From Nanobdellota archaeon (GTDB lineage Archaea; Nanobdellota; Nanobdellia; Woesearchaeales; GW2011-AR4): 64,000 bases of DNA. Location of the stretch: the NCBI GenBank assembly GCA_038046385.1, contig JBBSWH010000006.1, positions 129,009 through 193,008 on the forward strand, given 5' to 3'. The notes beneath the pieces are model-generated. The model ran no database searches and was not told the origin of the DNA. It was given only the letters and a program-made list of their open reading frames with translations. Numbering within the stretch: position 1 is the first letter of the stretch; each line of letters opens with the position of its first letter. Positions 24,264 to 54,869 of the stretch are shown here, in pieces. The position numbers and the translations under genes were made by a program.

Positions 24264-27200
24264 ACAAAAAAATATTTTTAATAATGATTGCAGTTTTTAT
24301 AATTGCATTTTCATTTAATGTGTATGCTGACGAAATAGGGTGCTGCTCAAACCCTGCAGCAGGATCATGGGCATGCTCATCAGACCTTGCAAACAGGGAT
24401 GCGCAGTGTTGCCCTCCACAGGCTGCAAATCCGTCATATTATAAGCCTCAAAATCCAGACGGGCCGGTTGATTACAATGCATGCAAAAATTCATTTTTTG
24501 CTGTAGGACAAAATTGCAGGAATGTTGAAGCATGCAATCAGGGATGCTGCTGTTCAGACACAGGAGGAACAGTAAAATCAAAAATACAATGCACTGGCTC
24601 CGGTGAAATTTTTGATGAAAGCGATCCAACATGCGCAAATTGCGCAGATCCACAATGCAATGACGGAATAGATAATGACAACAATGGATGCTCAGATTTC
24701 CAGGGCGGAGATTCCGGATGCACAGACTCAAGTGATACTTCAGAAGCAAGAGGAACATGCCTTGGGCAGTCTGGAGGATGCCTTGACTCATTATATAATC
24801 CAAAACTTTCAAGCTTGATAATCACTCAAGTCATCGGACAGAAAAAATTATTTTTGAGGTGGATTGATGAATGCGGTCAAAACGCAGTTTCATATGATAT
24901 ATCCAGATGCAAAGGACAGGACTGCACAAATTTGGTTTTTGTAACAACTTCTGCAACAAACTCCTTTGAAGATTCTTCAGCAGAGCTTGAATATGACACG
25001 ATGTACACTTACCAAGTTAAGGCGCATTACTCTCCGCAATCTTCAACACCGACTGTAAAAGGATACGGAACACTTGGAAATAAGGAATGCAGCAGCGGCG
25101 CCTCAAAAGTATGCGTCGGCAACATTGCATATTCATGCGTTGCGGGAAAGCTTGTAAAATTAAGCGAATGCGCATCAACGCAGGCATGCGTAATAAGTAA
25201 TGACGAGCCAAAATGCCTTAATAAAGACAATTGCAATTATAATGAAGCAAATCCTTTTGGATTGTTTTACACAAAACAAATTTGTGAAAACGAAAAATAC
25301 TGCTTTTATGACAAATCTGTAACCAGCGTTAATCGGTGCTTTTCTTGCAATCCTACAATGGCATGCTATGACTATAAATCAAAAGATTCCTGTGAAACTG
25401 ATAATTGCGGAGTAAACAGCTGCCAATGGAAAGAATCAATAAGCCAGATAGGGATAGGAGCGTGCGTAAAAACAACAGACTACAACTGCAAGTGGTGCAG
25501 CACGCAAGGAACAGTAGGAATGCAAAATATTTTAGCGTACAACCAGGTCTTTGACATCTGCACTGCAGAAAAAACATCTTTGCTTTCATTGACAAATTTC
25601 AAATGCTTTCTTAACGGAAACAAGGCAAGCGGATGCGACGAGACAAAATGCTCAGATTATGATGTTTCACAGTGCAGCGCACTCCCAATAACTCACAATT
25701 CCAAGAATGAAATAACTCGTTTTTCAACAGACCAGTGCGGCATAAAAGTATGTCAGAACATAAATAACAAATGCGTCAAGAATGCAGACGGAGATGCAAT
25801 TCCTGATTGCGCAAGCGCAACCAACTCAAGCTTCTGTGAAGGTGATTATTTTGCGCCAAACACAACAATAACAGCAACAACAACAATTTCAGCAAACACC
25901 CAGAAAAATATAATAGACACGCTGCTGATACAGATAAAGGATAAGTCAAGCTACAAAGGGGATTATTTCCTTAAGATGTCTTCTGATTACTCAACATTTG
26001 TATGCCTAGGATCATGCACAAGCGGGCATCCTTTTGCGGCATATACTAAAGGCAGAAAAATAGTAATTTCAAATCTTGGAGCATACGACGGAAGCAATGG
26101 CAGCAAAATGCTTACATTAACAGAAGGAAAAAATATAATAAATTATTACTCCCAGGATCCGTCAAAAAATATAGGAACAGTTCAGACGATTGAAATATTT
26201 GCGTATGACAACACCACTGGTCCAAAAATATTTTATTTTAATGTGACAGGAAGCTCATCTGCGAATGATATTTTCTATACAAATCAAAAAAGGCCTAACA
26301 TTAGAGTTATATTCTTTGAAAAAGCAACAATAACCAGCGCAAGATTAATTTCAAAAGACAGGAAAAGGATAATCTCATTAGATATTCCGAGCGGAGAAGA
26401 CACAATATTCAATTTAAACGCCCAAAGCGACGCGTCTGACGGAGAATACACTTTTGAACTGCAGGCAAAAAATTCTAAAAATATTTTCATGCAGACATTC
26501 ACTGCAGCAGTTGTTGTAGACACAATAAAGCCGAAAATAACAGTGACTCCTGCAGAAGGAACTTTGATAACAGAAGACAAGCCGGTTCAGGTAACCTTGT
26601 CGTTCAATGAGATTGTAATCCTTGATTTGGTAACAATAAATTCTCAAAATATAAAAGATAAGCTAACAACAACAAACAACAAAGATTTTACCGGAGCAGT
26701 TTCTGTAAGCGACGGCAACAAGGCGCTGCAGGTTAATGCAAGAGATTTTTCAGGCAACGCAATAACAAATACAACAAGATTCGTTATGGACGCAAAGCCA
26801 ATGGACATAACGATTGCAAAGCCGAAATACGGAGTTGCTCCAGACTATTCTTTTGAATTTGCAGTCACAACAGACAACAATGCAAACTGCAGGTTTGCAA
26901 TCGATGATGACGATGAATACGATTTTATGCAAGCATTCGGCATTACAACTGGCATTTTACACTCAAAGCAAGGTGTTTCAATAAGAAACGGAGATAACAG
27001 CACCCATAAATTTTACGTCAAATGCAAAGACGCAAAAAATACAATTTTCTCAAAAGATTTTGATATAAGCGTGGACAAGACAAAGCCCATAATAAAAAAC
27101 TCGTTCGCATTCCCAGCAGTCGTGGCAGATGATCCGTATATTTCTTCTTTGAATGCGCAGACAGATGAACCAACTATATGCAAATTCAGCACAACAAGCT

Positions 27201-30200
27201 CGTTATTTGACTCCATGGATGGAAAGTTTGACGGAGTTGACACCGAAACATTTAGTACAATAAATACAAAATCAATGCAATTAACGTTAACAGGCGATTA
27301 TTCATATAATGTAGTGTGCAGGAACAAAGCAGGATTAGATTCAGACGCTGCAACTATAAAATTCAAAGTTGATCCAAATACGCAATTGAAGATAACACCA
27401 CACACCCCTTATTTCTTTAATTCGACAACCGCAACGCTTGCAGTTGAAACCAACAGAAATGCGACGTGCAGATATTCACAGAATGAAGATATGTCTTCAT
27501 CAGACTTGTTTGGACCTTCAGGATATTCCCATATAAGAAGCACCGTACTTAGCGAAGGAAAATACAAATTTTATATCTCATGCAAGGACAAATCAGGGCA
27601 GGCAACAGACAGCATTAATGTTGAATTTGTTGTCGATACATCTGCCCCTATAATGCTCAATGTTAATGACACAAGCACGCTTAATATTTCTCCCGAAAGA
27701 ACATGCAATAATACCCTCCTTCGCGTCAAATGGAACGGAGAAGACCCACAATCTGGCATAAAATTGTTCTCTTATTCAATCCATAAAAAATCAAATAATG
27801 CAAAAATAGGAAATTCAAAAGTTTCTTTCCAAAAAGATGAATGGGAATGGATATACAATCTGGACCTTGAAGACGGAATGGACTACATTTTCAAAGTGCT
27901 TGCTACAAATTATGTAGAAATGAATAGCAGTCCAATGAGCAGCGACGGCATAAAGGTGCAGGCCTCGGCATGCGCTCCGCCTCCAGAATGCGGAGATAAT
28001 AAAATCAACAATGCAGGAGAAGAATGTGACAGGAGCACATTTGGCTCTATAAATGGTTGTCTTCAATACACTAATTTTATAGGTGGCACATTAAAATGCA
28101 CAAACGATTGCAAACTCGATAACTCAGGATGTGAAAGAGCCCCATTATGCGGCAACAGCATGCTTGATCCAGGAGAAGCCTGCGACGGAACTAAGTTAGG
28201 AAGCATCAAGGCATGCACAGACTATGCTGATTCATTCTCAGGAGGCACATTAAAGTGCACACCCACATGCCAGCTTGACACAACAGGATGCACAGAAAAG
28301 CCAAAATGCGGCAATAACTTCATTGATGTCGGAGAAGCCTGCGACGGAACCAAGTTAGGAATATCTAGCAATAAGTGTTTAGACTACAGTTCTACTTTTA
28401 GCGGAGGAAACTTAACCTGCAATAAATGCGCTTTAGACACAGCAGGATGCCAAGGCGTTGCAGGAGGAATTTGCGGAGATGGTATAATCAATCTCGGAGA
28501 AGCCTGCGACGGAACTAAGTTAGGAAGCATCAAGGCATGCACAGACTATGCTGATTCATTCTCAGGAGGCACATTAAAGTGCACATCAACCTGCCAATTA
28601 GATACAGCAGCATGCACAGAAAAGCCAAAGTGCGGAAATAGCTTTATCGATGTTGGAGAATCCTGCGACAGCAGCACTCTTGGAATAAAAAGCAGCGCGT
28701 GCTTGAATTATAGCGAAGACTTTAGCAAAGGGACATTAAAATGCGCAAACGATTGCAAACTCGACACAACAGAATGCGGAAAAACACCAACTTGCGGCAA
28801 CAATAAGCTTGACACCGGTGAACTTTGTGATGGCACACAGTTTGGAAGAATGACGGATTTAAGCTGCAATGCCTTTAGCCAACATTTTGCAAATGGAAGC
28901 GTTTCATGCAAATCCTGCAAAATATCCACAGATCAATGTGCGTCAAACAAGACAAGCGTGCTTACCTGCAAAGATAGCGGAACATGCAAGAAAGGAGATA
29001 GGTGCAGCGACAACTCTGATTGTGAAACGAGATACTGCGCAAACGGAGCATGCGGAGAGAATTCTTGCAGCGACCGTGTTAAAAATCCATACGAATCTGA
29101 TGTTGACTGCGGCGGGCCGTGCCCAAAATGCAGGGAAAACCTGGACTGCTATGAAAACAAGGACTGCGCTACAGGATTATGCAGCATAGGCAAATGCAAG
29201 CCGTCACAGTCATGTTTTGACAGGGCATTTACACAGGGAGAAAGCGATATTGATTGCGGCGGAATCTGCCCTGTAAAATGCGAGGAGACGGGGCATTGCA
29301 ACACTGATGAAGACTGCGGAAGAGGATTAACCTGCTATTCATCCTCATGCACAGCATCAAAAAAAGAGGTAATAGAACAACCCACTAATACTGACACAGA
29401 CGGGGATGGGATGCCGGACAGTTGGGAAATAGAAAACGGACTGGATCCAAATGACCCTTCAGATGCAGCATTAGATTCTGATAATGATGGATTGACAAAC
29501 CTTGAAGAGTTTGAATTTTACAACACTTATGGAACGAGCACAGACCCAAACAATTCTGATACAGACAACGACGGCCAATCTGACAAGGAAGAAGTAGACA
29601 GCGGGACAAATCCAATAGATCCAGAAGATTTCAAGAAATCCGGCTTTGGCACAATACTTATGTTTATTTTTGGAATATTGATAATGATTTCAGGCTTTGG
29701 ATACCTTGCTTATAGAGTAATATCAAAAAGGAATGAACGCTCATTTGACACTTCAGCAAGAACTCTAACAATGACAAGGCAGTCAATGCAGCAACAGACT
29801 ACCAGGGTGCAGCCGACAGCAAGGCCGCAGATGCAGCCTAGAATAAGGACGGCAGGAGACGTTTTCAGGAGAAAAGAAGAAGAAAAGGGAAAAGAAAGAC
29901 AGAGGTTATTTGAGTCGTTCGAATCAGGAAAGAAAACAGAAAAGACAGAGCAGGAACAGAAGCCAAACCAAAAAGAAAATACAAAAATAGGAAAAACAGA
30001 GCAGAAGCCTGAACAAAAAGAAAAGCCAAAAACAGGAAGAACAGAACAAAAAATAGACTACCAACATGAACAAAAAGAAAAGCCAAAATCTGAAAAACAT
30101 ACAGCAGCTCAAAAAGCAGTTCCAAAATCACACTCCAAAAAACAATCAGCGAAGCAGGAAGATGTTTTTGCAAAGCTGAAGGGCATAGCGGAAAAAAAGA

Positions 30201-30205
30201 GATAA
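24260..30205 (+). CDS. Giant membrane-anchored Cys-rich adhesin-like protein (1981 aa)
   Basis: Signal peptide; FN3/Ig-like stretches; six CG(D/N)...GE.CD repeats; two ESD.DCGG repeats; DTDGDGMPDSWE/DSDNDGL Ca-binding repeats; one TM helix and a charged cytoplasmic tail. Confidence 0.8.
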   Translation: MNKKIFLIMIAVFIIAFSFNVYADEIGCCSNPAAGSWACSSDLANRDAQCCPPQAANPSYYKPQNPDGPVDYNACKNSFFAVGQNCRNVEACNQGCCCSDTGGTVKSKIQCTGSGEIFDESDPTCANCADPQCNDGIDNDNNGCSDFQGGDSGCTDSSDTSEARGTCLGQSGGCLDSLYNPKLSSLIITQVIGQKKLFLRWIDECGQNAVSYDISRCKGQDCTNLVFVTTSATNSFEDSSAELEYDTMYTYQVKAHYSPQSSTPTVKGYGTLGNKECSSGASKVCVGNIAYSCVAGKLVKLSECASTQACVISNDEPKCLNKDNCNYNEANPFGLFYTKQICENEKYCFYDKSVTSVNRCFSCNPTMACYDYKSKDSCETDNCGVNSCQWKESISQIGIGACVKTTDYNCKWCSTQGTVGMQNILAYNQVFDICTAEKTSLLSLTNFKCFLNGNKASGCDETKCSDYDVSQCSALPITHNSKNEITRFSTDQCGIKVCQNINNKCVKNADGDAIPDCASATNSSFCEGDYFAPNTTITATTTISANTQKNIIDTLLIQIKDKSSYKGDYFLKMSSDYSTFVCLGSCTSGHPFAAYTKGRKIVISNLGAYDGSNGSKMLTLTEGKNIINYYSQDPSKNIGTVQTIEIFAYDNTTGPKIFYFNVTGSSSANDIFYTNQKRPNIRVIFFEKATITSARLISKDRKRIISLDIPSGEDTIFNLNAQSDASDGEYTFELQAKNSKNIFMQTFTAAVVVDTIKPKITVTPAEGTLITEDKPVQVTLSFNEIVILDLVTINSQNIKDKLTTTNNKDFTGAVSVSDGNKALQVNARDFSGNAITNTTRFVMDAKPMDITIAKPKYGVAPDYSFEFAVTTDNNANCRFAIDDDDEYDFMQAFGITTGILHSKQGVSIRNGDNSTHKFYVKCKDAKNTIFSKDFDISVDKTKPIIKNSFAFPAVVADDPYISSLNAQTDEPTICKFSTTSSLFDSMDGKFDGVDTETFSTINTKSMQLTLTGDYSYNVVCRNKAGLDSDAATIKFKVDPNTQLKITPHTPYFFNSTTATLAVETNRNATCRYSQNEDMSSSDLFGPSGYSHIRSTVLSEGKYKFYISCKDKSGQATDSINVEFVVDTSAPIMLNVNDTSTLNISPERTCNNTLLRVKWNGEDPQSGIKLFSYSIHKKSNNAKIGNSKVSFQKDEWEWIYNLDLEDGMDYIFKVLATNYVEMNSSPMSSDGIKVQASACAPPPECGDNKINNAGEECDRSTFGSINGCLQYTNFIGGTLKCTNDCKLDNSGCERAPLCGNSMLDPGEACDGTKLGSIKACTDYADSFSGGTLKCTPTCQLDTTGCTEKPKCGNNFIDVGEACDGTKLGISSNKCLDYSSTFSGGNLTCNKCALDTAGCQGVAGGICGDGIINLGEACDGTKLGSIKACTDYADSFSGGTLKCTSTCQLDTAACTEKPKCGNSFIDVGESCDSSTLGIKSSACLNYSEDFSKGTLKCANDCKLDTTECGKTPTCGNNKLDTGELCDGTQFGRMTDLSCNAFSQHFANGSVSCKSCKISTDQCASNKTSVLTCKDSGTCKKGDRCSDNSDCETRYCANGACGENSCSDRVKNPYESDVDCGGPCPKCRENLDCYENKDCATGLCSIGKCKPSQSCFDRAFTQGESDIDCGGICPVKCEETGHCNTDEDCGRGLTCYSSSCTASKKEVIEQPTNTDTDGDGMPDSWEIENGLDPNDPSDAALDSDNDGLTNLEEFEFYNTYGTSTDPNNSDTDNDGQSDKEEVDSGTNPIDPEDFKKSGFGTILMFIFGILIMISGFGYLAYRVISKRNERSFDTSARTLTMTRQSMQQQTTRVQPTARPQMQPRIRTAGDVFRRKEEEKGKERQRLFESFESGKKTEKTEQEQKPNQKENTKIGKTEQKPEQKEKPKTGRTEQKIDYQHEQKEKPKSEKHTAAQKAVPKSHSKKQSAKQEDVFAKLKGIAEKKR
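28172..28585 (+). repeat. Intragenic 90-bp perfect direct repeat (28172-28261 and 28496-28585)
   Basis: ggagaagcctgcgacggaactaagttagg...ttaaagtgcaca identical in both copies, offset 324 bp (in frame). Confidence 0.9.
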
Positions 30206-30210
30206 ATCTT

Positions 30211-30711
30211 ATGAAAAAAGCGCAGCTTTACGGACATATTTTTATTTACATTCTGACAATAACGGTTACATCATTCATACTGTTATACGGCTACAATGCG
30301 ATAAAAAACTTTCAGGACAAGACAGACCAGGCTTCGTGCATCAAGTTCAGGAATGACCTGAAATCAGCTGTTTATACGATAATGAGCGACTACGGGACTG
30401 TCAAGAGAAAAGATATTGAACTTTGCTCAAATTACAACAAAGTTTGCTTTGTGGAAACATACAGACAGATAAATAGGGATAATCCAACTTCAAACTCAAA
30501 TCCAATTGATCCAATAATAAAAGACAGCATAATATCAAAAACAGAAAAGAATGTTTTTCTTGTTGCAGATGTAGCAAAAGACGGCTTTTACATAGGCAAT
30601 GTAACTGTAGATGCAAACTTTGATGTTTACTGCGTTAATGCACAGAACGGCAAGATAAGCTTAAAATTAGAAGGAATGGGAGACAGTGTTTATGTTTCAA
30701 AATGGGAATGA
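30211..30711 (+). CDS. Type IV pilin-like protein
   Basis: MKKAQ-LYGHIFIYILTI class III leader. Confidence 0.8.
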   Translation: MKKAQLYGHIFIYILTITVTSFILLYGYNAIKNFQDKTDQASCIKFRNDLKSAVYTIMSDYGTVKRKDIELCSNYNKVCFVETYRQINRDNPTSNSNPIDPIIKDSIISKTEKNVFLVADVAKDGFYIGNVTVDANFDVYCVNAQNGKISLKLEGMGDSVYVSKWE

Positions 30712-30717
30712 TTTTTC

Positions 30718-31755
30718 ATGGACAAAAAAGGATTTGAGATACAGTTCAACTGGATATTTGTTCTTGTGGCAGGCACAGCCATACTCCTGTTTTTTTCTGG
30801 GATAATAATAAAACAAAAAGATGTTTCAGAAACAACAACAAAAGCAGCTGTTTTGAAGAATGTCGATTCTATTATTGCTTCAAACAGCGCAAGAGAAGAC
30901 ATAACTACATCAACAGAAATTCCATTGTCTACAATAGAGATAAGCTGCAACAAAATCACATCCGGAAAAGTGGCAAAACAGTTTTCCAGATCAATTATCT
31001 TTTCACCTGAAAAATTAACAGGAACAAAATTATTTGCAACTTCAAGAGAATTTTCTGCGCCTTATAAGGCAGTCAATTTGCTTTTCATGTCGAATCCATA
31101 CATAAAATATGTGATAATAGGAAATAATAATGTAAATGAGCATATTGCAAGTGAAATCAACAAATCAATCCCAGATAAATGGAATAAGGAGTTTTACACA
31201 GCAATGCCCAATATAAAACATGAGGCAAACACAAAGTACAGGCTTATTTTTACGTCTTTATCACCTTCACAAACCCCCATATTTCCAAATGAGATACAAG
31301 GAATGCCGGACGATGATGTGACAGCACTGAAAGTGAATGGAGACATCCTTAAAGGAGATTTGACATTTTATTCAAAAAAAGGAGCATCATGGAAACTGCA
31401 AGGAAAATCAAGCTACATAACTAAAAATCTCCTTATGGGGGCAGTGTTCTCCGGGTCAAATGAAAATTATGAATGTTCTGCTGCAAATGCATTCTCAAGA
31501 ATGGCGCTTGTTTCTGGAATAAATTCAGACCGGGCTGGAAACTTATTGGCCAATGACCAAATTACAAATCCAGAATGCAAAGAAGAATATCAATATTCTA
31601 TCCAAAGTTTTAACAAAATAAAATTATCATCAGAATCAATTTCAACATCAGGAATAATATCAAAAAACAAAATAGATGAAATTTCAACGCAATCAGGGTT
31701 GCTTGAAGAATACAACCAAAAACTCAAGATACGCTCATGCCCATTAGTTTACTAA
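30718..31755 (+). CDS. Type IV pilin-like protein (large globular domain)
   Basis: MDKKG-FEIQFNWIFVLVAG class III leader. Confidence 0.8.
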   Translation: MDKKGFEIQFNWIFVLVAGTAILLFFSGIIIKQKDVSETTTKAAVLKNVDSIIASNSAREDITTSTEIPLSTIEISCNKITSGKVAKQFSRSIIFSPEKLTGTKLFATSREFSAPYKAVNLLFMSNPYIKYVIIGNNNVNEHIASEINKSIPDKWNKEFYTAMPNIKHEANTKYRLIFTSLSPSQTPIFPNEIQGMPDDDVTALKVNGDILKGDLTFYSKKGASWKLQGKSSYITKNLLMGAVFSGSNENYECSAANAFSRMALVSGINSDRAGNLLANDQITNPECKEEYQYSIQSFNKIKLSSESISTSGIISKNKIDEISTQSGLLEEYNQKLKIRSCPLVY

Positions 31756-31756
31756 A

Positions 31757-32233
31757 ATGAAAAAAAAGAAATCCCAAATACAGATTGGAGAAACCATATC
31801 GGTTATATTCGTTTTTTTTATATTGCTTTTGATAGGGTTCATGTTTTATGCAAAAGTTCTCAAGGGAAATGCCGCAATAGAGTCAGACGAGCTGGCGCAG
31901 TTAAGGTCTGTTGAGATTGCGCAGAGGGTTATGTTTCTTCCAGAGATGCAGTGCAGCACCGATGTGACTGACAGCAAGAACTGCATTGACAAACTGAAGG
32001 TAGAATCTGCAAAAAATGTAATGAACTTAAATGCAGTTGAATATTTTGACATATTGGGTTTTGCAAAAATAAAGATTCTTCAGGTGTATCCTTCATACGA
32101 GGAAACCGAAATCTATTCAAAGGACCTTTCGGATTTCAAGAACAAGTTCTCAACAAATGTGCCTGTTTCTATTTATGATCCTATAAAAAAAGAATATAAT
32201 TTTGGATTGGTGTCAATTGAAACGTACTCGTAA
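31757..32233 (+). CDS. Type IV pilin-like protein
   Basis: KKSQ-IQIGETISVIFVFFILL class III leader. Confidence 0.8.
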   Translation: MKKKKSQIQIGETISVIFVFFILLLIGFMFYAKVLKGNAAIESDELAQLRSVEIAQRVMFLPEMQCSTDVTDSKNCIDKLKVESAKNVMNLNAVEYFDILGFAKIKILQVYPSYEETEIYSKDLSDFKNKFSTNVPVSIYDPIKKEYNFGLVSIETYS

Positions 32234-32693
32234 AGGGCAGATGGAGATATTGGGATTGGCGATTGTTGTAGTTTTATTGCTTCTTGCTGCAACTTTTGTC
32301 ATAAGATTTCTGCTCACGAAGAAATCACCGGAATACAGGAAAAGCTTCATAAGTGCTGAACTTGCATCAGGAATGATAAACACTATTTTGAAGACAACAG
32401 CTACTTCATGCTCAAGGGCAACAATGAAGGACTTATTGGAGGACTGTGCGACTTCACAGTCACTTGTGTGCGAAGATGGGCAAGGAGCTTGTGATTATTT
32501 TGATGAGGCTGCCAACGGAATACTAATTCAGACTCTTAACAAATGGAACTACAAATATCAGTTTACAGCAGTAATTGGGCAGAATAGCCCTTTTGTCAGC
32601 ATCGGGAGCAAGTGCCTTTCGGAGAAAAAATCAGAAACTTATGTTGTGCCAAGCTCAATACCAATACAGGTTAAGCTTGATATTTGCGGATAG
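32217..32693 (+). CDS. Type IV pilin-like protein (probable TTG start at 32217)
   Basis: RKGQ-MEILGLAIVVVLLL class III leader. Confidence 0.8.
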   Translation: MKRTRKGQMEILGLAIVVVLLLLAATFVIRFLLTKKSPEYRKSFISAELASGMINTILKTTATSCSRATMKDLLEDCATSQSLVCEDGQGACDYFDEAANGILIQTLNKWNYKYQFTAVIGQNSPFVSIGSKCLSEKKSETYVVPSSIPIQVKLDICG

Positions 32694-32742
32694 TAGTTGT
32701 TAATGACCCATTTAGTTTATCCTTTGAGTTATTGAATGATAA

Positions 32743-32802
32743 TTCCGTCCTTCGGACAAACGTTACAGCTCGCTGGCACCATAACCAGCTCGCCATATAT
32801 TG
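32743..32802. repeat. 60-bp dispersed hairpin repeat, copy 2
   Basis: 58/60 identical to 18754-18813. Confidence 0.9.
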
Positions 32803-32924
32803 AACTAATCACAATCTTTATATTAAGGAAATCAAAGATTTTCTGATATAAATCTTCGAAATAGAACATTTCGATATATTTATATATAACCAATCCGATA
32901 AAACATTATCAAAGAGGTGTCAAT

Positions 32925-33185
32925 ATGAAAAAAGCGCAGGGAATTTCAATCAACGTCATTATTATAGCAGCAATCGCACTTGCTGTTTTAGTAGTTCTAT
33001 TTGCCATATTTACAGGCAGAATAGGCGGATTTTCAAAGGGGGTGTCTGAAACAGACACATGCGCGCAGAAATGCTCTGCTTTAAACATGCAGAAGCTTGG
33101 GGATATAGGCCCAGGAGAATGCAGCGGAACCCCAATAGGCGGAAAGTACTCTGACACGCCAACCAACGGATGCTGCTGCGGTTAG
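32925..33185 (+). CDS. Small pilin (major pilin candidate)
   Basis: MKKAQG-ISINVIIIAAIALAVLVVL; Cys-rich C-terminus; own TTTATATA box about 45 nt upstream and GAGGTG RBS. Confidence 0.85.
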   Translation: MKKAQGISINVIIIAAIALAVLVVLFAIFTGRIGGFSKGVSETDTCAQKCSALNMQKLGDIGPGECSGTPIGGKYSDTPTNGCCCG

Positions 33186-33227
33186 CAATACAAAATATTT
33201 ATATAGTGAGTTCTTTAGTATTTTTGT

Positions 33228-33488
33228 ATGATTAGCAGGAAAGCTCAAGGCATGCCGCTTAATGTAATAATAATAGCAGCATTGGGGCTGATTGTTCTTG
33301 TTATTCTTGCAGTAATGTTTTCTGGAGAGAGCAAGAAGTTTTCAGCAGGAATAAGCAGCTGTGCAGCAAAACAAGGAACTTGCCAACAAAAAGCATGCGA
33401 TGACGAACAGGTAACAATTAATGGAGTATGCCCTGAAAAAGGACAATCGACAGATTTGAAATACTGCTGCGCAAAAGTTCTTGGTTAA
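33228..33488 (+). CDS. Small pilin (paralog of preceding gene)
   Basis: RKAQG-MPLNVIIIAALGLIVLVIL; Cys-rich; own TTTATATA box upstream. Confidence 0.85.
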   Translation: MISRKAQGMPLNVIIIAALGLIVLVILAVMFSGESKKFSAGISSCAAKQGTCQQKACDDEQVTINGVCPEKGQSTDLKYCCAKVLG

Positions 33489-33489
33489 A

Positions 33490-33603
33490 ATGTTAAAGAA
33501 ATCTCAGATAGACAGTGTTATGATATGGATTATAGGAATCGCTCTTGGATTACTGTTTTTTTATGGAATATGGAAGGCACTGACAAATGGACTTAGCCCG
33601 TGA
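33490..33603 (+). CDS. 37-aa micro-pilin (not in ORF track)
   Basis: MLKKSQ-IDSVMIWIIGIALGLLFFYGIWKALTNGLSP*; starts 2 nt after the previous stop and overlaps the next gene. Confidence 0.7.
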   Translation: MLKKSQIDSVMIWIIGIALGLLFFYGIWKALTNGLSP

Positions 33604-34705
33604 CAAGAAAGGAATGGAACTTTCAACTATAATTGAAATAATTCTGGTAGTTGTGGCAGCGGGCCTTATAATCGGTGTTTTTACGCTTGCGTCAAACAAA
33701 GCAGATGAAAAAACATCAGAGATATTATGCAGAGGATTCAATTCTGTAAGGTTTTTAACCAAAATAGATAAAGGCCCTCTTTCGTTTAATGTAGCTCCGA
33801 ATGCGTGCAAGACAATTGATGTCAAAGACTTGCCGACAAAGGCTTATGCGACTTCTACCGATGTAAGCGCATTGAAGCAAAGCATGGCATACCAAATAAG
33901 GGATATGGCGACAAAGTGCTGGTGGATGTGGCTTGAAGGAAGGCAGACTAATATGTTCAGCACATCGACATTATCTTTTGAAAACAAGTGCTTTGTATGC
34001 TATACTTTTTCAATTGACAAAGACACGGGATTCATTCCAGTTGAAACTTTCTATAAATCCCTAAATGATCCTTACTTTGCATCAGACACTTCTGACAAAT
34101 GTGCTTCTGGCGGCGGAGGGAAGTGCATGGAAAAATGCGAAGGGGATTACCCAAAAGACACTTCATCTTCAAAATGCCAGCCTGACCAGAAATGCTGCGT
34201 CGCAGACAATGAATGCGAAAGCAAAGGGGGAAAATGCGCAGAAACATACCCTGACGGCGGTGGATATGTTGAATTCAACAAATGGCCTTGCAAGAGCGGA
34301 AAAACATGCTATGTGCCATCAGGAGTTTCAGGAACATATTTTGATTATATACAGGGCACAAAAGGAGAAGGCGGATTGGGTTTTATTGTACAGCCGGATG
34401 ATATGAACACTTTCGACAGCAATAATTATTATGCAATAACTTTTGTAAGTCCAGGAAACCATGCAAATTTAGATACATTTGGGTATGGGACTGTCACGGC
34501 AGTTTTAGGGGCAGGAACATTAGCAGCAACATGGTTTTCTCCAATAGGAAAAGCAAATATTTTGGCAGGAGGTTCAACATTAACTGCTGTGGAATATAAA
34601 ATGACGCAAAAATCAGGCGATGCAAATGCCAACTATCTTTATATATCAAAGTATGATGATGTGAAAGGAAAGTGCCTTGCGGAGACAGGGGCAGGACAGA
34701 AATGA
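33587..34705 (+). CDS. Type IV pilin-like protein, Cys-rich
   Basis: DKKG-MELSTIIEIILVVVAAG leader; repeated C...GG.C units; second hydrophobic segment near the C-terminus. Confidence 0.8.
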   Translation: MDLARDKKGMELSTIIEIILVVVAAGLIIGVFTLASNKADEKTSEILCRGFNSVRFLTKIDKGPLSFNVAPNACKTIDVKDLPTKAYATSTDVSALKQSMAYQIRDMATKCWWMWLEGRQTNMFSTSTLSFENKCFVCYTFSIDKDTGFIPVETFYKSLNDPYFASDTSDKCASGGGGKCMEKCEGDYPKDTSSSKCQPDQKCCVADNECESKGGKCAETYPDGGGYVEFNKWPCKSGKTCYVPSGVSGTYFDYIQGTKGEGGLGFIVQPDDMNTFDSNNYYAITFVSPGNHANLDTFGYGTVTAVLGAGTLAATWFSPIGKANILAGGSTLTAVEYKMTQKSGDANANYLYISKYDDVKGKCLAETGAGQK

Positions 34706-34842
34706 AATCAAAGAAAGCAGAACTTATAGAAGGAAAATTGATTACAATAATTTTGATACTTGTATTCCTTGCAATCGCAATAGGAATCTCAATCATCTTC
34801 AAGGATAAAATGTCATCAATAATATCATCAATATTCGGGTGA
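34702..34842 (+). CDS. 46-aa micro-pilin (not in ORF track)
   Basis: MKSKKA-ELIEGKLITIILILVFLAIAIGISIIFKDKMSSIISSIFG*; ATGA overlap with the upstream stop. Confidence 0.7.
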   Translation: MKSKKAELIEGKLITIILILVFLAIAIGISIIFKDKMSSIISSIFG

Positions 34843-34846
34843 ACAA

Positions 34847-35635
34847 ATGCCAGAAACTCTTATAGGAAAAATTGTATTATGGGGGTCTTTGCTTCTGTTC
34901 GTTGGCATATTCGCTTATGTTTTTTATTCAGATGAGGGGTTGCTAAAGACTATTGCAAACCTTGCATTGAAGACAGAAAGATTTCTTCCGTTTGGCACAG
35001 ACAAGGACGTTGGAACTACGACTGCAATTAACACAGCAGTTTTGGCATCCCATCTAAAATTTTCTGAAGAAGTTGATAAGTACGCTGCAAACTATGGGTG
35101 TCTGATTGATGCAGACTTTTCAGCTTTTGACGGATATACATTAGAGATATCAAATTCAGCAGGAAAAATAACATCAACAATATTAAAACCAGTTAATGAA
35201 AAAGGATTAATAGACAACAGCGGATTCTTGAGATTAAGGCAGAAAACTGTTGAGAGCAACACTAAGATATGCATGGTAAATCCAGACGTATTTGTTAAAT
35301 GTTATAATGAAAATCAAGGATGCACTTCTTCAAGCCTTTTTGTATCTGCTGACAAGCTTAAAGTCACAAAAGACAAAGTTTTATTCGGAGACCAATCTCA
35401 TAATTACGCAAATGGAATACTTTTCAAGCCGGCACAGGATGAAGTTTGCTTTATACCGACACATTCAGGAGCATTCACATGGTTTGGATGCGATGCGGAT
35501 GCAGCAACCATGGATGATGATTGTTTGAATTTTATAAAATCAAAAGTTCCAAAATGCTCGACAGGAAATGGAAATATTCCTGCGCCGAATGTAAACGCAA
35601 GAGCAGCAGCAGATGCAACAGCAACATCGAGATAA
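34847..35635 (+). CDS. Membrane-anchored Cys-containing protein in pilin locus
   Basis: N-terminal TM helix without a basic class III leader. Confidence 0.65.
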   Translation: MPETLIGKIVLWGSLLLFVGIFAYVFYSDEGLLKTIANLALKTERFLPFGTDKDVGTTTAINTAVLASHLKFSEEVDKYAANYGCLIDADFSAFDGYTLEISNSAGKITSTILKPVNEKGLIDNSGFLRLRQKTVESNTKICMVNPDVFVKCYNENQGCTSSSLFVSADKLKVTKDKVLFGDQSHNYANGILFKPAQDEVCFIPTHSGAFTWFGCDADAATMDDDCLNFIKSKVPKCSTGNGNIPAPNVNARAAADATATSR

Positions 35636-35636
35636 A

Positions 35637-35924
35637 ATGAAATCAAAAAAAGGAGCAGAAGGAATAATCTGGATTGTGATAGTTTTTGTTCTTCTTTTAT
35701 TGTTTATGTTTATTTACACAGGGATATGGACAAAGCTATTTGGGAAGGGCGCAAAAGGAATTGGCGATCAGATTGATGCAACATCGAATGATCATGACAG
35801 CGACGGAATTGCCGATTTTGCAGACAGATGCCCGTGCGGCGGAAGTGACGGTCAGCCGGAATACAACGGATGCACGAAGACTAGTGATGATAAAGAAAAA
35901 AGCGACAGAACATGCTTAAAATGA
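35637..35924 (+). CDS. Pilin-like protein with TSP3-type Ca-binding repeat
   Basis: MKSKKG-AEGIIWIVIVFVLL; DHDSDGIADFADRCP. Confidence 0.8.
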   Translation: MKSKKGAEGIIWIVIVFVLLLLFMFIYTGIWTKLFGKGAKGIGDQIDATSNDHDSDGIADFADRCPCGGSDGQPEYNGCTKTSDDKEKSDRTCLK

Positions 35925-36598
35925 ATTCTAAAAAAGCATTTACTATGGCAGAGGCTTTGATGAGAATAACCATAGCTGCAGTTTTGCTGTTTATTGTCTT
36001 TAAGTTTGGAAAGGGAGTTGCAGATTCCTTATCTGGAGGAAACGACGCATTGAATTCTTTTGAAAGCCTTGCAAATGAGATGAATTCGCATGAGAATTGG
36101 ATTGAAAAGCAAACACTGCTTTCTTTAGATTCGGATACTGCAGTATTCGGCTTTTCCAAAACCGGAAACTTTGAGTGTTACGGATGCGGAAACCTGGATA
36201 AAGGCAAGCTAAGGAGCTTTTTTACAAGGCCACAGAATGAAGAGTGCAAGGACAGCGCATGTGTATGCTTATGCTCATCCCCTTCTGTGCCTCCTGACTC
36301 GCCTCTCTCAGAGTCATTGGAAATAAAATGCAAAAAGATGTCATGCAGGAAAACAAATTACGAAATATCCAGCGGATATGAAGTTAAAAGGTTCTTCAAG
36401 TCAATTTCAGCTAGTGATACAGCTTCATGGAAAAATGGATTTGTATATGCAAGGGATATAGAGGACAACACAGTTCCTATAACGGGCATGCCTAGGAACA
36501 AAGAAAGAATAACATCTCTTTTCCTTGAAAGAAAAACAGCTAACGGGATAAATTATATAGGAGTATGCCCTGTTAAGCCATGCATAGAGCAAAACTAA
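35921..36598 (+). CDS. Type IV pilin-like protein
   Basis: MNSKKA-FTMAEALMRITIAAVLL (bacterial-like F1/E5 pattern). Confidence 0.8.
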   Translation: MNSKKAFTMAEALMRITIAAVLLFIVFKFGKGVADSLSGGNDALNSFESLANEMNSHENWIEKQTLLSLDSDTAVFGFSKTGNFECYGCGNLDKGKLRSFFTRPQNEECKDSACVCLCSSPSVPPDSPLSESLEIKCKKMSCRKTNYEISSGYEVKRFFKSISASDTASWKNGFVYARDIEDNTVPITGMPRNKERITSLFLERKTANGINYIGVCPVKPCIEQN

Positions 36599-36789
36599 TA
36601 TAAACCCTTAATTCGAGTTCTATACAATGTCGAAAATATATTCTCAGCATATAAATGGCAGACGTAAGCTGAATATAATTGCAAAAGACAATATATTTTC
36701 GAGCACGATCAAAAACCACAGACAATTTAATAAACAGATACGAGCATTTCAAAATATATACTATTTAACCACAAAAGGTGGTTTTTGAC

Positions 36790-37251
36790 ATGCAAAAAAG
36801 AGGGCAGCTTGTAAACAAGGCACTTATAGTTCTGATAGTATCTGCAATAGTCGTTATTGCATTCATATCTGCAGGAAAGTCTTTTGGATCTGGAGATGCA
36901 TATTACAAGCTGGCTGTCGCAAAAGATTTGGCACTTTCGGTTGATTTGATAAGCGGGATGCCGGGCGATGTTGTATTTACATATCCAAATGATGTTTCCG
37001 GATATGATATTGAAGTCAAGAAGAATTTAATCTTAGTTTATGGCAATAAGCTTGGCAAGCTCGACCCTGTTAAGGCAACTTACAGTTTCTCAAGTGTTGG
37101 CCAGATTGAAGATGTTTACATAAAGAATGCAAAATATGTTACTATAGAAAAAACAGGCAATAAGATTATACTGAAAGAATCAACACTTTTTGCAGGATTT
37201 GGAGGATCCGGAGCATTTTCTGGCAAAGGTTCAAGCGGAGTTATTCAATGA
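36790..37251 (+). CDS. Type IV pilin-like protein
   Basis: MQKRG-QLVNKALIVLIVSAIVV. Confidence 0.75.
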   Translation: MQKRGQLVNKALIVLIVSAIVVIAFISAGKSFGSGDAYYKLAVAKDLALSVDLISGMPGDVVFTYPNDVSGYDIEVKKNLILVYGNKLGKLDPVKATYSFSSVGQIEDVYIKNAKYVTIEKTGNKIILKESTLFAGFGGSGAFSGKGSSGVIQ

Positions 37252-37739
37252 AAACAAATAAAATATTTTCATCGAAAAGAGCAACAGAGCTGTGGGCAGC
37301 AGACACATTTTTGTGGTGGATAGTGTTCATAATTGCTGTCGGCTTTGCAGCAATCGGATTTTCTATTTTCACATATCAAATTGGATCCCAGCAGGCGCAG
37401 ATAAGGGAGAATTTAGAGTCTTATTACCTCATGCAGCGCTTTACAAAAGTTTCTGAATGCTTTGCATACAACCCAGAAGGAATTATAATCCCAAATACAA
37501 TAGACTTGGCTAAATTTACAGATTCAAAACTTCAAACCTGCTACGATTCTGAAAGCGCAAAGATGCCGGCTTTCAAGCTGACGCTTGTTACAGACAAGAC
37601 CGCTTTAATAATGACAAAAAACTGGAATGATAAAAGAGAGGCAGAACTAACATTAGCTTCGCAACCGGTTTTGGTCTATTCAGGCGCAAAAACATCAAAA
37701 GGAGAGTTAAAAATTGAAATACAAAATCTTCAGAAATAA
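37248..37739 (+). CDS. Type IV pilin-like protein
   Basis: SKRA-TELWAADTFLWWIVFIIAVG. Confidence 0.7.
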   Translation: MKTNKIFSSKRATELWAADTFLWWIVFIIAVGFAAIGFSIFTYQIGSQQAQIRENLESYYLMQRFTKVSECFAYNPEGIIIPNTIDLAKFTDSKLQTCYDSESAKMPAFKLTLVTDKTALIMTKNWNDKREAELTLASQPVLVYSGAKTSKGELKIEIQNLQK

Positions 37740-38232
37740 ACGAGCAATAGGCATAGACGATGCAATTCCCGTAATAGTAATCATATTCGTGGTTGCAATA
37801 ATGTTCATGCTTTTCAAATTTAATGAGCATTCAAAAGAAAAAGATATAGCGAATAATATACAAAATCAGAAAGACATAATCGATGGGCATGAAGTTCTTG
37901 TTGGGTATTTAACAAAAACAGATTCAAGCGGAAAAAATAATGCAGATTTGCTGATGGAAGCATATCTTAACAAAGATGATTCTGTTAAAAGCAAAGTTAA
38001 GGACTATTTCTCCGCAAAACTCTTGCATCTTACCGGATGGGAAGTGCAAATTTCAGATTCTCAAAATAAAGTTTTTTTCTCTGTAAATGGGGGATCTTAT
38101 GACAGTTCACAGCTTAAGAATGCAGTTACAGAGTCAATAATACCGGCAAGAAACGGGAATTATCTGAGAATAACGCTGAATTACGGAAGAGGAAAGGCGC
38201 AGAGCATGTATGCGAACGCAAAGAACGGTTAA
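37714..38232 (+). CDS. Type IV pilin-like protein
   Basis: NKRA-IGIDDAIPVIVIIFVV. Confidence 0.7.
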   Translation: MKYKIFRNKRAIGIDDAIPVIVIIFVVAIMFMLFKFNEHSKEKDIANNIQNQKDIIDGHEVLVGYLTKTDSSGKNNADLLMEAYLNKDDSVKSKVKDYFSAKLLHLTGWEVQISDSQNKVFFSVNGGSYDSSQLKNAVTESIIPARNGNYLRITLNYGRGKAQSMYANAKNG

Positions 38233-38233
38233 A

Positions 38234-39379
38234 ATGTTCAACAACAAAAAAGGAATAGGGTTGGAGTGGTATTTCCTTATCATAGCTTTATTCTTGGGGA
38301 TAATCTGGTTTTACATAGCGATGCAGAATGCAAGAACAATCTCAAATTATGTTGGAGAATATCAGTTTTCAATTCTGAAAACAGCGAACGAAGCCGAAAA
38401 TATTATTTTTTACATAGGTCAGTCTGCAAAATATTCTCTGGAGCAGGCGATTTACGACTTGGCCAGCAATGGGGGAATTTCAGAAGGCGAGCCTGGAGCT
38501 TCAATGAAATCAGATGATTTCTACAACGCAAACCCCTCTGACAGGTGCGGCAAATTTAACGGCTACAATGTCTGGATGCAGTTTCAGAGAAATGAAAACG
38601 GAGTGCAGGTTAATGACTGCTTTGATGCAGATGCAGTCGATTCAGATTTAGAAGTATATTTCGACAAAAACCTCAACAGCCATTTGGGAAAATACACTTT
38701 TGATATTCCAAGAGACTATCAATACAAGTTCAGCGGAGCAACAGAAGTTACAGGAATTGCATCATACCCTCTTATTTTTGACATTTCAAATATAAAAACA
38801 GCAACACAGCAAAAGCCAACACTGACAACCGGAGCAAATACTCCTGTGACAACAAAGCCGGGAATACCCGTTTCACAGATTTATTTTGGAAAATTAAATG
38901 ATTTCACAAATAAGAGATCAAGCAGCATAGCAGTTGAAAAGATAATTCTTCACCATACGGGGGACAGTGCAGCGTCGCAGACGTTTGCAACGCTGAAACA
39001 GAGGAAGTTATCGGTGCATTACATAACAGACAGAGACGGCACAATCTACTATGTTGTTGATGAAAGCTTAACGGCGTGGCACGCCATTGGCCAGAATGCA
39101 GATTCAATCGGAATAGAGATTGTGAACAATGCAAAAGCAGTCACAAAATACACCGATGCACAATATGAATCAATAAACAAATTGATTAAGGATATATCCA
39201 GCAGATGGCCTAACATAAAGATTGACAATAATCACATATTTGCGCATTATCAAACTGACCCAAAAAAGGAGAAATGGGATCCTTCTCCAAATTTTGACTG
39301 GTCAAAGATTGAATTAACGGATCACCAGACGCTTGCTGACTTGGGAAGAAATGCTCCAGCAGGGATGGGGTACACTTAA
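38234..39379 (+). CDS. Pilin-like protein fused to N-acetylmuramoyl-L-alanine amidase (Amidase_2, AmpD/AmiD-like)
   Basis: MFNNKKG-IGLEWYFLIIALFLG leader; T/P-rich linker; IILHHT, SVHYI, AWHAIG, SIGIEIVN, YTDAQY, FAH, KWDPSPNFDW. Confidence 0.88.
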   Translation: MFNNKKGIGLEWYFLIIALFLGIIWFYIAMQNARTISNYVGEYQFSILKTANEAENIIFYIGQSAKYSLEQAIYDLASNGGISEGEPGASMKSDDFYNANPSDRCGKFNGYNVWMQFQRNENGVQVNDCFDADAVDSDLEVYFDKNLNSHLGKYTFDIPRDYQYKFSGATEVTGIASYPLIFDISNIKTATQQKPTLTTGANTPVTTKPGIPVSQIYFGKLNDFTNKRSSSIAVEKIILHHTGDSAASQTFATLKQRKLSVHYITDRDGTIYYVVDESLTAWHAIGQNADSIGIEIVNNAKAVTKYTDAQYESINKLIKDISSRWPNIKIDNNHIFAHYQTDPKKEKWDPSPNFDWSKIELTDHQTLADLGRNAPAGMGYT

Positions 39380-39381
39380 AA

Positions 39382-40698
39382 ATGGAAAATAATCATTTCA
39401 TAGAACTAATGATAATCCCGCTGCTTATTATAGGGGCATTGCTGTATACTGAAAATTTTGACAATGTAATCACCGGATTTGCCACACAAGCTCCTGTGCA
39501 GAATACTAATCCAATTCTTGGAACATATTCAGCAAAGCCGAGCTTTAAGGCGTCATTCGATTATGATGTTAAAGCGAAAATTTCTTCGATAAAGGGCACA
39601 ATGAATCTCATAGCAGACACGTGCAAAGATGACCCTGATATAGAAAATTGCATGAACTCAAGCTTTTCAGGCCTTAAATGGATTTGCAGCAATGACAATG
39701 CAGAAGATGTTTTGCACGATTTTACAGGCAAGATGAAAGACTGCTTAGCTCTTGAAGAAAATGTTATCTGCAAATTCGGATTTGATGATAGAAACCTTGA
39801 TGGGAGAACATTCAACATCAAGCTTTTAAAAGAAGACGGAATTGTAAAAGCGCAATTGCTTGCGAATGGAAAATCAATTGCAGCAGAATATCTTGGGATC
39901 GATAAAATCCAATATACTGATTTTGCTTCAAAGGAAAAGGGAACAGATGCAGACTCTGCCGACATAATCGTTTCTTATTCTGATGGAAAGCCGAATGTAG
40001 AGAAGATGTTTGCGATGGCATCCAATTCAAGAACAGAATTAAGCAAAAAAATAATCCTGTACAAGTCAAACGGAATAAAGTTCATAGACGAAACAGAAGA
40101 AAACTCATTTGGAGCCCCAATCAAGACAGTATTTTTGCCAAGATACAAAGGCATGAAATTATGCGTCGATGCAGGAAAACAAGTTTATGCTTATGATGCA
40201 TCAGACAATCAAGTTAAGAGGAGAGACTTGGTTTACAGGTTTGCAATCACGTTCACAACACCGCCTCCAGGGCCTTTGACCGGTGTGAGAAGCCTTTCCA
40301 TGCCTGACGGAACACAGATTGTAATATGGAGCAAAATGGAAGATGCTGCTTCGTACTCTATTTATTATTCAAAGTTAGATTTTATTGATTCAAAATTATC
40401 TTCAATAAGAAGCGACAAGGATGTTATTCATGTTTCTGTTGATGCCAACCAGCCTTATGAAGAATTTGATAATTTCCCAACAACCAAGTTTGAGAAAGGC
40501 AAGCTGTACTATCACACCTTACTTAACAAGTTCACTTATGTGATTGATGTTGAGGACAACACACCCTATTACGCTGCTGTTGCAGCTGCAAACGAGCAAG
40601 GTTCAGAGATATTCAACGACAATACCGTGCCAAACTCTTTTGTTTATGAAAAAGGGAAGAACTATGCTGAATTCACTTCCGGCACAGATTCACAATAG
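39382..40698 (+). CDS. Membrane-anchored extracellular protein with C-terminal FN3-like domain
   Basis: N-terminal TM helix + ITGFAT; PPPGP...IVIWS...YSIYYS...YYAAVAAANEQGSE. Confidence 0.65.
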   Translation: MENNHFIELMIIPLLIIGALLYTENFDNVITGFATQAPVQNTNPILGTYSAKPSFKASFDYDVKAKISSIKGTMNLIADTCKDDPDIENCMNSSFSGLKWICSNDNAEDVLHDFTGKMKDCLALEENVICKFGFDDRNLDGRTFNIKLLKEDGIVKAQLLANGKSIAAEYLGIDKIQYTDFASKEKGTDADSADIIVSYSDGKPNVEKMFAMASNSRTELSKKIILYKSNGIKFIDETEENSFGAPIKTVFLPRYKGMKLCVDAGKQVYAYDASDNQVKRRDLVYRFAITFTTPPPGPLTGVRSLSMPDGTQIVIWSKMEDAASYSIYYSKLDFIDSKLSSIRSDKDVIHVSVDANQPYEEFDNFPTTKFEKGKLYYHTLLNKFTYVIDVEDNTPYYAAVAAANEQGSEIFNDNTVPNSFVYEKGKNYAEFTSGTDSQ

Positions 40699-45501: not shown

Positions 45502-45502
45502 G

Positions 45503-46120: not shown

Positions 46121-46121
46121 A

Positions 46122-53680: not shown

Positions 53681-53741
53681 TATTTCACCTTTTCAAGTAT
53701 CATAAAAATTTCCTCTAAATTTTTAGGATCCCGAAAAATGC

Positions 53742-54860: not shown

Positions 54861-54869
54861 AGAAACACC

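Follow-up and report, generated by a model that had tools for sequence, protein, structure and literature searches.

What use could an archaeon have for an exported enzyme that cuts the cell wall of bacteria? The question is raised by one gene in a stretch of 64,000 nucleotides, called the window here, from a Nanobdellota archaeon of the Woesearchaeales (assembly GCA_038046385.1, contig JBBSWH010000006.1, positions 129,009 to 193,008 of the forward strand), which forms the final 64 kb of a 193-kb contig. The gene encodes a short leader of the kind found on prepilins, a hydrophobic helix, a domain that we call the carrier domain, a flexible linker and an amidase of the Amidase_2 family. A preliminary description of this DNA had read it as an archaeal pilin fused to a peptidoglycan amidase, and had proposed a pilus-borne subunit that opens bacterial walls. 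Our analysis supports, from the sequence and the models built on it, an extracytoplasmic and catalytically complete amidase for the bond between N-acetylmuramic acid (MurNAc) and L-Ala in a DPANN-type (Woesearchaeota-like) archaeon. The amidase would be one of several exchangeable warheads found at the same operon position in related archaea, and we consider it probable, if only just, that the protein is a hydrolase-presenting subunit of an apparatus on the cell surface, akin to type IV filaments, whose target is the bacterial wall. The gene and its product (residues, aa, are numbered from ATG 38234, the start used in the preliminary description) have the following parts.

38210..39379, forward strand: hydrolase-carrier open reading frame, stop included; a single open frame, intact in independent contigs.
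38234..38254, forward strand: leader MFNNKKG of class III type (prepilin-like), with putative cleavage after Gly7.
38255..38332, forward strand: hydrophobic N-terminal helix, aa 8-33, the sole hydrophobic segment, from models and hydropathy.
38357..38773, forward strand: carrier domain, aa 42-180, about 140 residues, alpha/beta, from homologue alignment and models.
38774..38878, forward strand: Thr/Pro-rich flexible linker, aa 181-215, with a predicted local distance difference test score (pLDDT) of about 37.
38933..39289, forward strand: Amidase_2 (PF01510) catalytic domain, aa 234-352, from Pfam, structure alignments and Foldseek.
38951..38953, forward strand: His240, first Zn ligand (HHT), from alignment.
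39116..39118, forward strand: Glu295, catalytic Glu (SIGIE), from alignment.
39245..39280, forward strand: His338 (Zn), Lys347 and Asp349 (Zn) in FAH...KWDP, from alignment.
39290..39376, forward strand: conserved C-terminal tail of the module, with H-x-T-L-A-x-L-G-K...G-Y-x at the very end.

Amidase_2 enzymes, among them AmpD, AmiD and T7 lysozyme, cut the MurNAc-L-Ala bond of bacterial peptidoglycan (murein), a polymer absent from archaea. The C-terminal module matches the family profile PF01510 far above its cut-off (95.4 bits against 26, E = 4.6e-27, profile positions 5-131 of 131), and H240, E295, H338, K347 and D349 align onto conserved positions of AmpDh2, AmiD and AmpD, the closest solved relatives of the module (the equivalents in the AmpD chain are H at 154, K at 162 and D at 164, plus the Glu of SIGIE). 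These five positions are invariant across 23 aligned sequences, and we take their roles in Zn binding and catalysis to be those known for AmpD. A phmmer search against solved structures returned AmpDh2, AmpD, AmiD and T7 lysozyme among its matches. In the model of the whole protein (pLDDT 78, with higher values for the enzyme) the module folds like AmpD, with AmpD 2y2b as the best Foldseek match (E = 2.1e-9, target TM-score 0.61); 33 matches reach E <= 0.001, all amidases or peptidoglycan recognition proteins among those listed. The preliminary description, which had seen an Amidase_2 domain with its Zn ligands and catalytic Glu and had proposed a profile search and a structure prediction as checks, is borne out by both. 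The score against the NCBIfam AmpD equivalog NF008758 is 65.1 bits, short of its cut-off of 143, and by these scores we place the module in Amidase_2 and not among AmpD orthologues. Pfam gives Amidase_2 only, and no peptidoglycan-binding domain was found in the protein. The tail motif of the module ends homologues too, including a 1245-aa protein of the same genome described below, and might be a recognition or regulatory element.

Could the union of these parts be an artefact of assembly? The preliminary description had itself pointed to contig chimerism at this gene as a danger to its interpretation; to the extent that contigs can tell, it is ruled out. Archaeal genes lie upstream (Cdc6/Orc1, both subunits of DNA polymerase D, MCM and RNase P p30), and downstream of the gene cluster an RPA-like protein follows immediately, then RadA. 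Contigs from other studies match across the upstream border (X4 37685-38522, X3 37075-38446) and across the body and downstream border (X4 38547-40625, X5 38361-39640), each with 0 differences and 0 gaps. Because they match both borders exactly, the contig is not chimeric at the gene and the frame is intact; on the archaeal flanks and these bridging contigs we reject chimerism and contamination. A broken gene was likewise rejected, the window frame being intact and letter-for-letter identical in contigs from other runs. Two frameshifted pieces of the gene, P0001 (233 aa) and P0121 (68 aa), come from a 57834-base contig and are probably assembly errors in another version of the contig. The window DNA occurs in groundwater metagenomes from several studies, and no RNA data set is listed as containing it. 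The genome to which it belongs has 19 contigs totalling 1.28 Mb, with a completeness rated at 85%, and the nearest homologues that bear a name are given as Candidatus Woesearchaeota, Pacearchaeota or Nanoarchaeia. The product has 381 residues if ATG 38234 is the start and 389 if it is ATG 38210. Short leaders in homologues fit the former better, a purine-rich stretch precedes the latter, and the choice is not settled by the sequence; the Lys-Lys-Gly junction is identical whichever start is used. The gene overlaps the end of the preceding gene, and 3 bases separate its stop from the start of the downstream gene.

The N-terminal half would place the enzyme outside the cell. Its junction reads MFNNKKG/IGLEWYFLII... 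(the slash marks the putative cleavage site), hydropathy places the hydrophobic segment at aa 12-30, and the models give a helix at aa 8-33, so that the class III (prepilin) leader KKG and its hydrophobic helix are as first described. Of 22 homologues, 19 have a [KR][GAS] motif and two others K-x-[GA], and 114 of 149 representatives of the carrier family have the leader motif. The pattern applied, our own approximation of FlaFind-type rules, requires [KR][GAS] and, at most a few residues further on, a stretch of 16 residues that are uncharged and for the most part hydrophobic. The carrier domain is modelled as a long helix (aa 42-78), four strands and a further helix (aa 132-152), and its Cys105 and Cys129 are nearly invariant. 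Extracytoplasmic export is supported by the single N-terminal hydrophobic helix together with this conserved Cys pair. The Thr/Pro linker, too, is as first described, in its composition (8 Thr and 4 Pro among the 36 residues of aa 181-216) and its low pLDDT. It ends in a conserved stretch, TTKPGIPVS (38849-38875), with which the amidase module opens on all the types of carrier seen.

The part comprising aa 1-190 appears, from its homologues, to be a family of its own, and the amidase fusion one of the forms taken by a carrier whose cargo can be exchanged. When aa 1-190 served as the query of a full HMMER scan, 274 representatives were found at E <= 0.001, and the family analysis covers 149 of the best 150 of these, the gene's own fragment P0001 being left out. 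Of the 149, 39 have at most 210 residues (stand-alone forms of about 171-185 aa, and fragments) and 110 are longer. The stand-alone forms appeared only in this later scan; a word-indexed search for short stand-alone forms of aa 1-190 had given only the window's own gene fragment. In the 110 longer members, Pfam recognises VanY (26), Peptidase_M15 (20), SLT (10), M15_3 (7), M23 (5), M15_2 (5), Amidase_2 (3), NlpC/P60 (2), Lysozyme_like (2), M74 (1) and fn3 (5), with the M15-type models overlapping on the same domains; apart from a few single odd hits, the matches are almost only to murein hydrolases. A hydrolase is present in at least 51 of these longer members, 43 by local profiles seeded on Pfam-verified domains and eight more verified with Pfam. 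Single-linkage clustering of the C-terminal tails by BLAST collapsed to one cluster of 79 and was dropped. Because relatives carry VanY/M15, SLT, M23, NlpC/P60 and M74 domains on the same carrier, the cargo would be exchangeable, and each recognised cargo is predicted to cut a different bond of bacterial murein. Among 301 sampled genomes of the same taxonomic class, Amidase_2 occurs in 31 and the carrier domain in 17 (one query sequence, E <= 1e-5).

These swaps of hydrolase strengthen the case beyond the one first made, as does a second wall-degrading protein encoded in the same genome, 38 kb upstream of the window.

Contig C6 about 91239-94976 (L012:7240-10977), reverse strand: 1245-aa SLT+Amidase_2 protein, from profile matches.

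It has a polytopic N-terminal membrane part followed by SLT (E = 7.6e-12) and Amidase_2 (E = 9.6e-28) domains, and its amidase module opens with nearly the same linker motif as that of the carrier protein. Three paralogous lipoprotein-like genes, encoding 344-349 aa, follow its gene.

The carrier gene is also set in a particular place, second-to-last in a run of 18 genes that is rich in leader-bearing proteins.

19525..40698, forward strand: run of 18 co-directional genes, of which 12 fit the leader pattern and 15 do so by eye.
24260-30205, forward strand: 1981-aa Sec-type surface protein inside the run.
32925..33185, forward strand: 86-aa leader-bearing protein KKA/QGISINV..., candidate major filament subunit.
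33228..33488, forward strand: second 86-aa leader-bearing protein RKA/QGMPLNV..., a paralogue of the former.
39382..40698, forward strand: downstream gene, 438 aa, with an N-terminal hydrophobic helix and a Cys-rich body; predicted partner of the carrier domain.

Among open reading frames of this genome that start with a hydrophobic stretch, the motif is found in 12 of the 14 that lie in the cluster and in 38 of the 193 that lie outside it, counts that include paralogues and are not independent, so that the printed p-value overstates the case. The [KR][GAS]Q junction of six cluster genes is that of the genome's canonical pilins, K[GAS]/QAALEFL, which are located outside the cluster, two of them adjoining an ATPase and platform pair on contig C8. 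The 86-aa protein at 32925..33185 belongs to no family in Pfam or NCBIfam, and for it, as for the carrier part, the ESM Atlas gives archaeal clusters without names only. The 1981-aa protein is Cys-rich, with repeated C-x-G-x-x-C-D modules and TSP3 repeats, and its C-terminus consists of a hydrophobic anchor and then a Lys/Glu-rich tail; in two related loci (L027, L033) the gene next after that of such a giant encodes an amidase protein.

This arrangement is kept in relatives. Loci L013-L016 retain the gene order, with the carrier last or second-to-last in the run; an amidase carrier is followed there by a homologue of the downstream gene (uncalled in L016), and RPA comes next in L013 and L014. 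In eight further genomes, viewed over 14-20 kb around the carrier gene, the carrier closes the same run of leader-bearing genes in seven (L052 shows this only in part) and is directly followed by the RPA gene in four. The modules in the eight are M23 (three), SLT (one) and Amidase_2 (one), with none recognised in two and a stand-alone carrier in one. The run is a conserved 15-18-gene operon of Woesearchaeota-like DPANN archaea.

A natural fusion (P0037), in which the carrier domain runs straight into the body of the downstream protein and no amidase is present, led us to model the complex of the two. For carrier aa 36-190 with downstream aa 40-438, the interaction prediction score from aligned errors (ipSAE) is 0.70, against 0.01 for the best of three controls, a mark reached by 58 of 80 solved complexes and by 2 of 110 mismatched pairs, a calibration that is only rough. 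Three runs share at least 76% of contacts, with a partner pLDDT of at least 79, and strand 111-117 of the carrier is predicted to pair with residues 285-290 of the partner. Together, the modelling supports binding of the carrier domain to the product of the downstream gene. Elsewhere the amidase module is found on a homologue of that downstream protein (P0022), as well as on another leader-bearing body (P0024), on a bare anchor (P0028), behind a Sec-type signal (P0040) and on proteins of 1200-2060 aa (L020, L024, L031).

Candidate machinery for processing and assembling leader-bearing proteins is present in the genome. A single Peptidase_A24 gene (prepilin peptidase, E = 2.9e-16, 299-aa frame) lies on contig C15, and there are four T2SSE matches. 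In four related loci (L023, L026, L029 and L030), a T2SSE ATPase of about 764 aa is encoded no more than 10 kb from the carrier gene, accompanied by a partner of about 720 aa with 7-8 hydrophobic segments, and L032 has the partner alone; the ATPase and/or its partner are thus near the carrier gene in 5 of 31 archaeal loci examined. The genome of the window has an orthologue of this ATPase (53% over 762 aa).

These observations suggest how the protein might work. The hydrophobic helix at the N-terminus, the only one in the precursor, would insert it in the membrane and leave the Lys-rich leader on the inner side, and the A24 prepilin peptidase would, as the motif suggests, cleave after Gly7. 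The carrier domain of about 140 residues would dock on the product of the next gene, as the modelling and the natural fusion indicate, and the pair might then stay on the cell surface, either as a minor or tip subunit of a filament that would be made of the 86-aa subunits or at the base of that filament. The Zn amidase would then swing on its Thr/Pro tether of about 35 residues and cut the MurNAc-L-Ala bond in a touched bacterium, and the loosening of the wall would serve attachment, lysis or uptake of wall fragments. Sequence and fold establish the catalytic machinery; the substrate and the cell-contact step we infer, as we do the two proposals of the preliminary description that the enzyme is built into a filament and that it opens the wall at the contact point. 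More specifically, the apparatus could be a true type IV filament with a tip complex of carrier domain and downstream protein, holding the murein hydrolase on a flexible tether, a version that we advance only tentatively. If true, the filament would be a host-breaching organ of DPANN archaea living on bacteria, its warhead swapped repeatedly to suit the chemistry of the host wall, and the type of module would predict the host of an uncultured lineage.

The pilin part of this reading draws on the leader motif, the position in the run and the ATPase beside the carrier gene in some relatives, and several results weigh against it. The leader pattern is missing from 35 of the 149 family representatives, some of which are fragments or have wrong starts. 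A PDB structure search with the model of aa 1-190 (pLDDT 76) gave 0 matches at E <= 0.001, and no pilin stands among the 50 PDB rows listed for it; the protein matches no pilin family in Pfam (E <= 0.1) or NCBIfam (E <= 1), and no pilin profile was found in Pfam or NCBIfam for the other 15 cluster proteins scanned. Classical pilins have a single continuous N-terminal helix, and the modelled helix is broken between aa 33 and 42 (aa 34-41). The part between the helix and the linker is not a recognisable pilin fold or family, and the 'pilin-like body' of the preliminary description was not confirmed. No ATPase or platform gene was found in the window's own cluster, and 26 of the 31 related loci show no ATPase or partner within 10 kb. 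The orthologues of the ATPase (C5:275-2551, reverse strand) and of its multi-span partner (C19:26461-27186) in this genome both lie at extreme contig ends, so that C19 and C5 are probably neighbours; the partner of about 720 aa has no T2SSF match. The complex was modelled from our own alignments, both of which contain the natural fusion, so that its calibration is only approximate. Furthermore, the amidase module sits on plain N-terminal anchors without a leader in six loci (L018, L019, L022, L023, L029, L034), on Sec-type or giant proteins in five (L020, L024, L027, L031, L033) and, in the own genome, on a polytopic membrane protein without a leader; a pilus is therefore not required for its use. 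The filament first proposed is supported by the leader, the conserved run of leader genes and the A24 and T2SSE genes, and lacks the support that an ATPase in the own cluster or a recognisable pilin would give.

The protein might instead be a membrane-anchored ecto-enzyme, its helix being a signal anchor, cleaved or not, that keeps it on the archaeon's own surface with no filament involved, which we regard as possible though doubtful. Together with the SLT+Amidase_2 protein, such an enzyme would digest wall debris and muropeptides in groundwater and supply an organism with little biosynthesis with peptides and amino sugars. The substrates of AmpDh2, AmiD and AmpD are muropeptides and anhydro-muropeptides, which SLT-type enzymes produce. 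These three enzymes are also the closest solved relatives of the module, and the pairing of SLT with an AmpD-like amidase in this genome mirrors the bacterial recycling route. The occurrence of the same module on plain anchors and on a polytopic membrane protein, and the want of a pilin fold or family, point the same way, as does a GH3-family gene, possibly NagZ-like (C2:40444-41376, 469-aa frame), which could act on wall-derived amino sugars. However, AnmK was not found in the genome, which is only 85% complete, and an ecto-enzyme of this kind leaves unexplained why the leader motif is strongly enriched over other proteins with a hydrophobic N-terminus, why the gene keeps the same place in a conserved gene run that includes short pilin-like genes, why the ATPase or its partner is linked to it in 5 of 31 loci and why a specific partner is predicted by modelling. 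Scavenging and attack are not mutually exclusive.

That the module is instead shed, after leader cleavage or proteolysis of the linker, and kills distant competitors as a released antibacterial lysin is unlikely. Bactericidal archaeal peptidoglycan hydrolases do exist, and Nanoarchaeota are reported to be rich in such genes (PMC12352652); the long disordered linker could serve as a cleavage site. No peptidoglycan-binding domain was recognised, however, and the conserved carrier domain, the predicted partner and the fixed operon position argue for a protein that is retained and assembled; a shed lysin is less likely because the binding domain is missing and carrier and partner are conserved. 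The wall of a diderm, moreover, is out of reach for a lone amidase from outside.

The host archaeon has no murein, and the function would therefore not be to recycle a wall of its own. A search for a penicillin-binding transpeptidase found none in its genome, which at 85% completeness does not show absence, and self-made murein was rejected as an explanation, the sole Mur_ligase_M match being of a kind that also appears in control archaea. A target other than murein, whether the pseudomurein of methanogen partners (a partnership proposed for Woesearchaeota in published titles and abstracts), the archaeon's own envelope, or none at all in a vestige of a bacterial pilus or secretion cluster whose hydrolases opened the producer's own wall, as dedicated wall hydrolases of bacterial trans-envelope machines do, is very improbable, because six classes of hydrolase that attack different murein-specific bonds share the carrier, SLT requires the beta-1,4 MurNAc-N-acetylglucosamine bond that pseudomurein lacks, the search for a transpeptidase gave nothing and the Mur-ligase match is uninformative, and catalytic residues invariant across a diverse family fit a vestige poorly.

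Some further genes of the window bear on the biology of the organism. A bacterial-type set of two PlsC-like acyltransferases and an NAD-dependent glycerol-3-phosphate dehydrogenase stands at 44860-47093 (forward strand) on this archaeal contig, and open reading frames of similar size and order, compared on those two properties, lie downstream in L014 and L016. At 51108-57430, a DUF362 gene lies between two thiolase-like genes (reverse strand) and a biotin carboxylase gene is on the forward strand; these may be related to the bacterial-type fatty-acid genes reported for Woesearchaeota. The gene at 2073-3959 (reverse strand), with a Schlafen group 3-like DNA/RNA helicase domain (E = 1.8e-101), may be defence-related. 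A tRNA scan of the window found none, and a scan for promoters and terminators of sigma-70 type was not above shuffled sequence, such a model not being meaningful for an archaeon.

We know of no Woesearchaeota-type DPANN archaeon with a proven host, and an archaeon living on bacteria is an open question. The earlier genomic case rested on SLT domains in huge proteins. To it, the proposed hydrolase-presenting subunit of a surface apparatus adds a device that can be tested, made up of a conserved operon, a dedicated carrier, six murein-specific classes of hydrolase and a predicted partner. Comparing module type with co-occurring bacteria could yield a host predictor for uncultured lineages, and the modules on the carrier offer small natural lysins from organisms that they cannot harm.

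In that earlier case, Woesearchaeota and Pacearchaeota were inferred from their SLT proteins to have bacterial hosts or prey (Castelle et al., 2021, PMC8204110; Vigneron et al., 2022, PMC9723730), so that a life on bacteria, or at their expense, has already been proposed for such archaea. As far as the relevant passages of these papers go, the lineages, the bacterial-wall substrate and the inference of a bacterial host are the same as here, and the SLT domains sit on very large proteins, of which the 1245-aa protein of our genome is one. The words 'amidase' and 'pili' are absent from the searchable article text of both, where the leader-bearing carrier, the six-class swap and the operon position are not described. 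A 2026 survey reports archaeal type IV filament systems to be widespread except in Asgard and DPANN, in a main text that has neither 'peptidoglycan' nor 'amidase' (PMC13705601). Full-text word searches of the literature, with supplements outside their scope, found no description of a pilin-type carrier with murein hydrolases in DPANN, nor of exchangeable hydrolases on the carrier or of its conserved operon position. The device formed by carrier, exchangeable hydrolases and operon position appears undescribed, and is broader than the preliminary description saw.

Archaeal enzymes against bacterial murein are known from Halogranum, whose Woldo and Danwoldo share this target (PLoS Biol, 2025, PMC12352652). 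According to the sections that define them, these combine a catalytic with a peptidoglycan-binding domain, bear signals of the Sec or Tat type and end up in the medium. The protein studied here has no binding domain and so falls outside that definition; it has instead a pilin-type leader and a carrier domain, encoded in a surface-structure operon.

Among bacterial amidases, the periplasmic, lipid-anchored AmpDh2 of Pseudomonas and AmiD of E. coli resemble it in fold, in the set of Zn, Glu and Lys residues and in their tethered extracytoplasmic state; unlike the cytoplasmic AmpD it would be exported, and it is without PG_binding_1. In Sulfolobus, the sugar-binding proteins of the 'bindosome' have class III signal peptides and are not known as filament subunits. 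There, likewise, a pilin-type leader places a functional protein at the archaeal surface; the bindosome cargo binds solutes for uptake, whereas here it consists of murein hydrolases encoded in an operon of many leader-bearing genes.

An architectural parallel is offered by the modular pilins of bacteria (Raynaud et al., 2021, PMC8179133), for which predicted peptidase modules are reported and a location at the tip is argued; amidase, hydrolase and peptidoglycan go unmentioned in the main text. In the portions of that study that describe them, PilB (vWA) and PilC (lectin) of Streptococcus sanguinis have a short leader ending in Gly and about 21 hydrophobic residues, like the carrier protein, and modular pilins share with it a design in which a linker joins a small N-terminal module to a grafted functional one. 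They are bacterial and defined by IPR012902, whereas the archaeal protein matches no such family; unlike PilB and PilC, its N-terminal module has no recognisable pilin fold, and the grafted modules are murein hydrolases. The 'modular pilin' idea, described for bacteria, would thereby be extended to archaea and to wall-degrading cargo.

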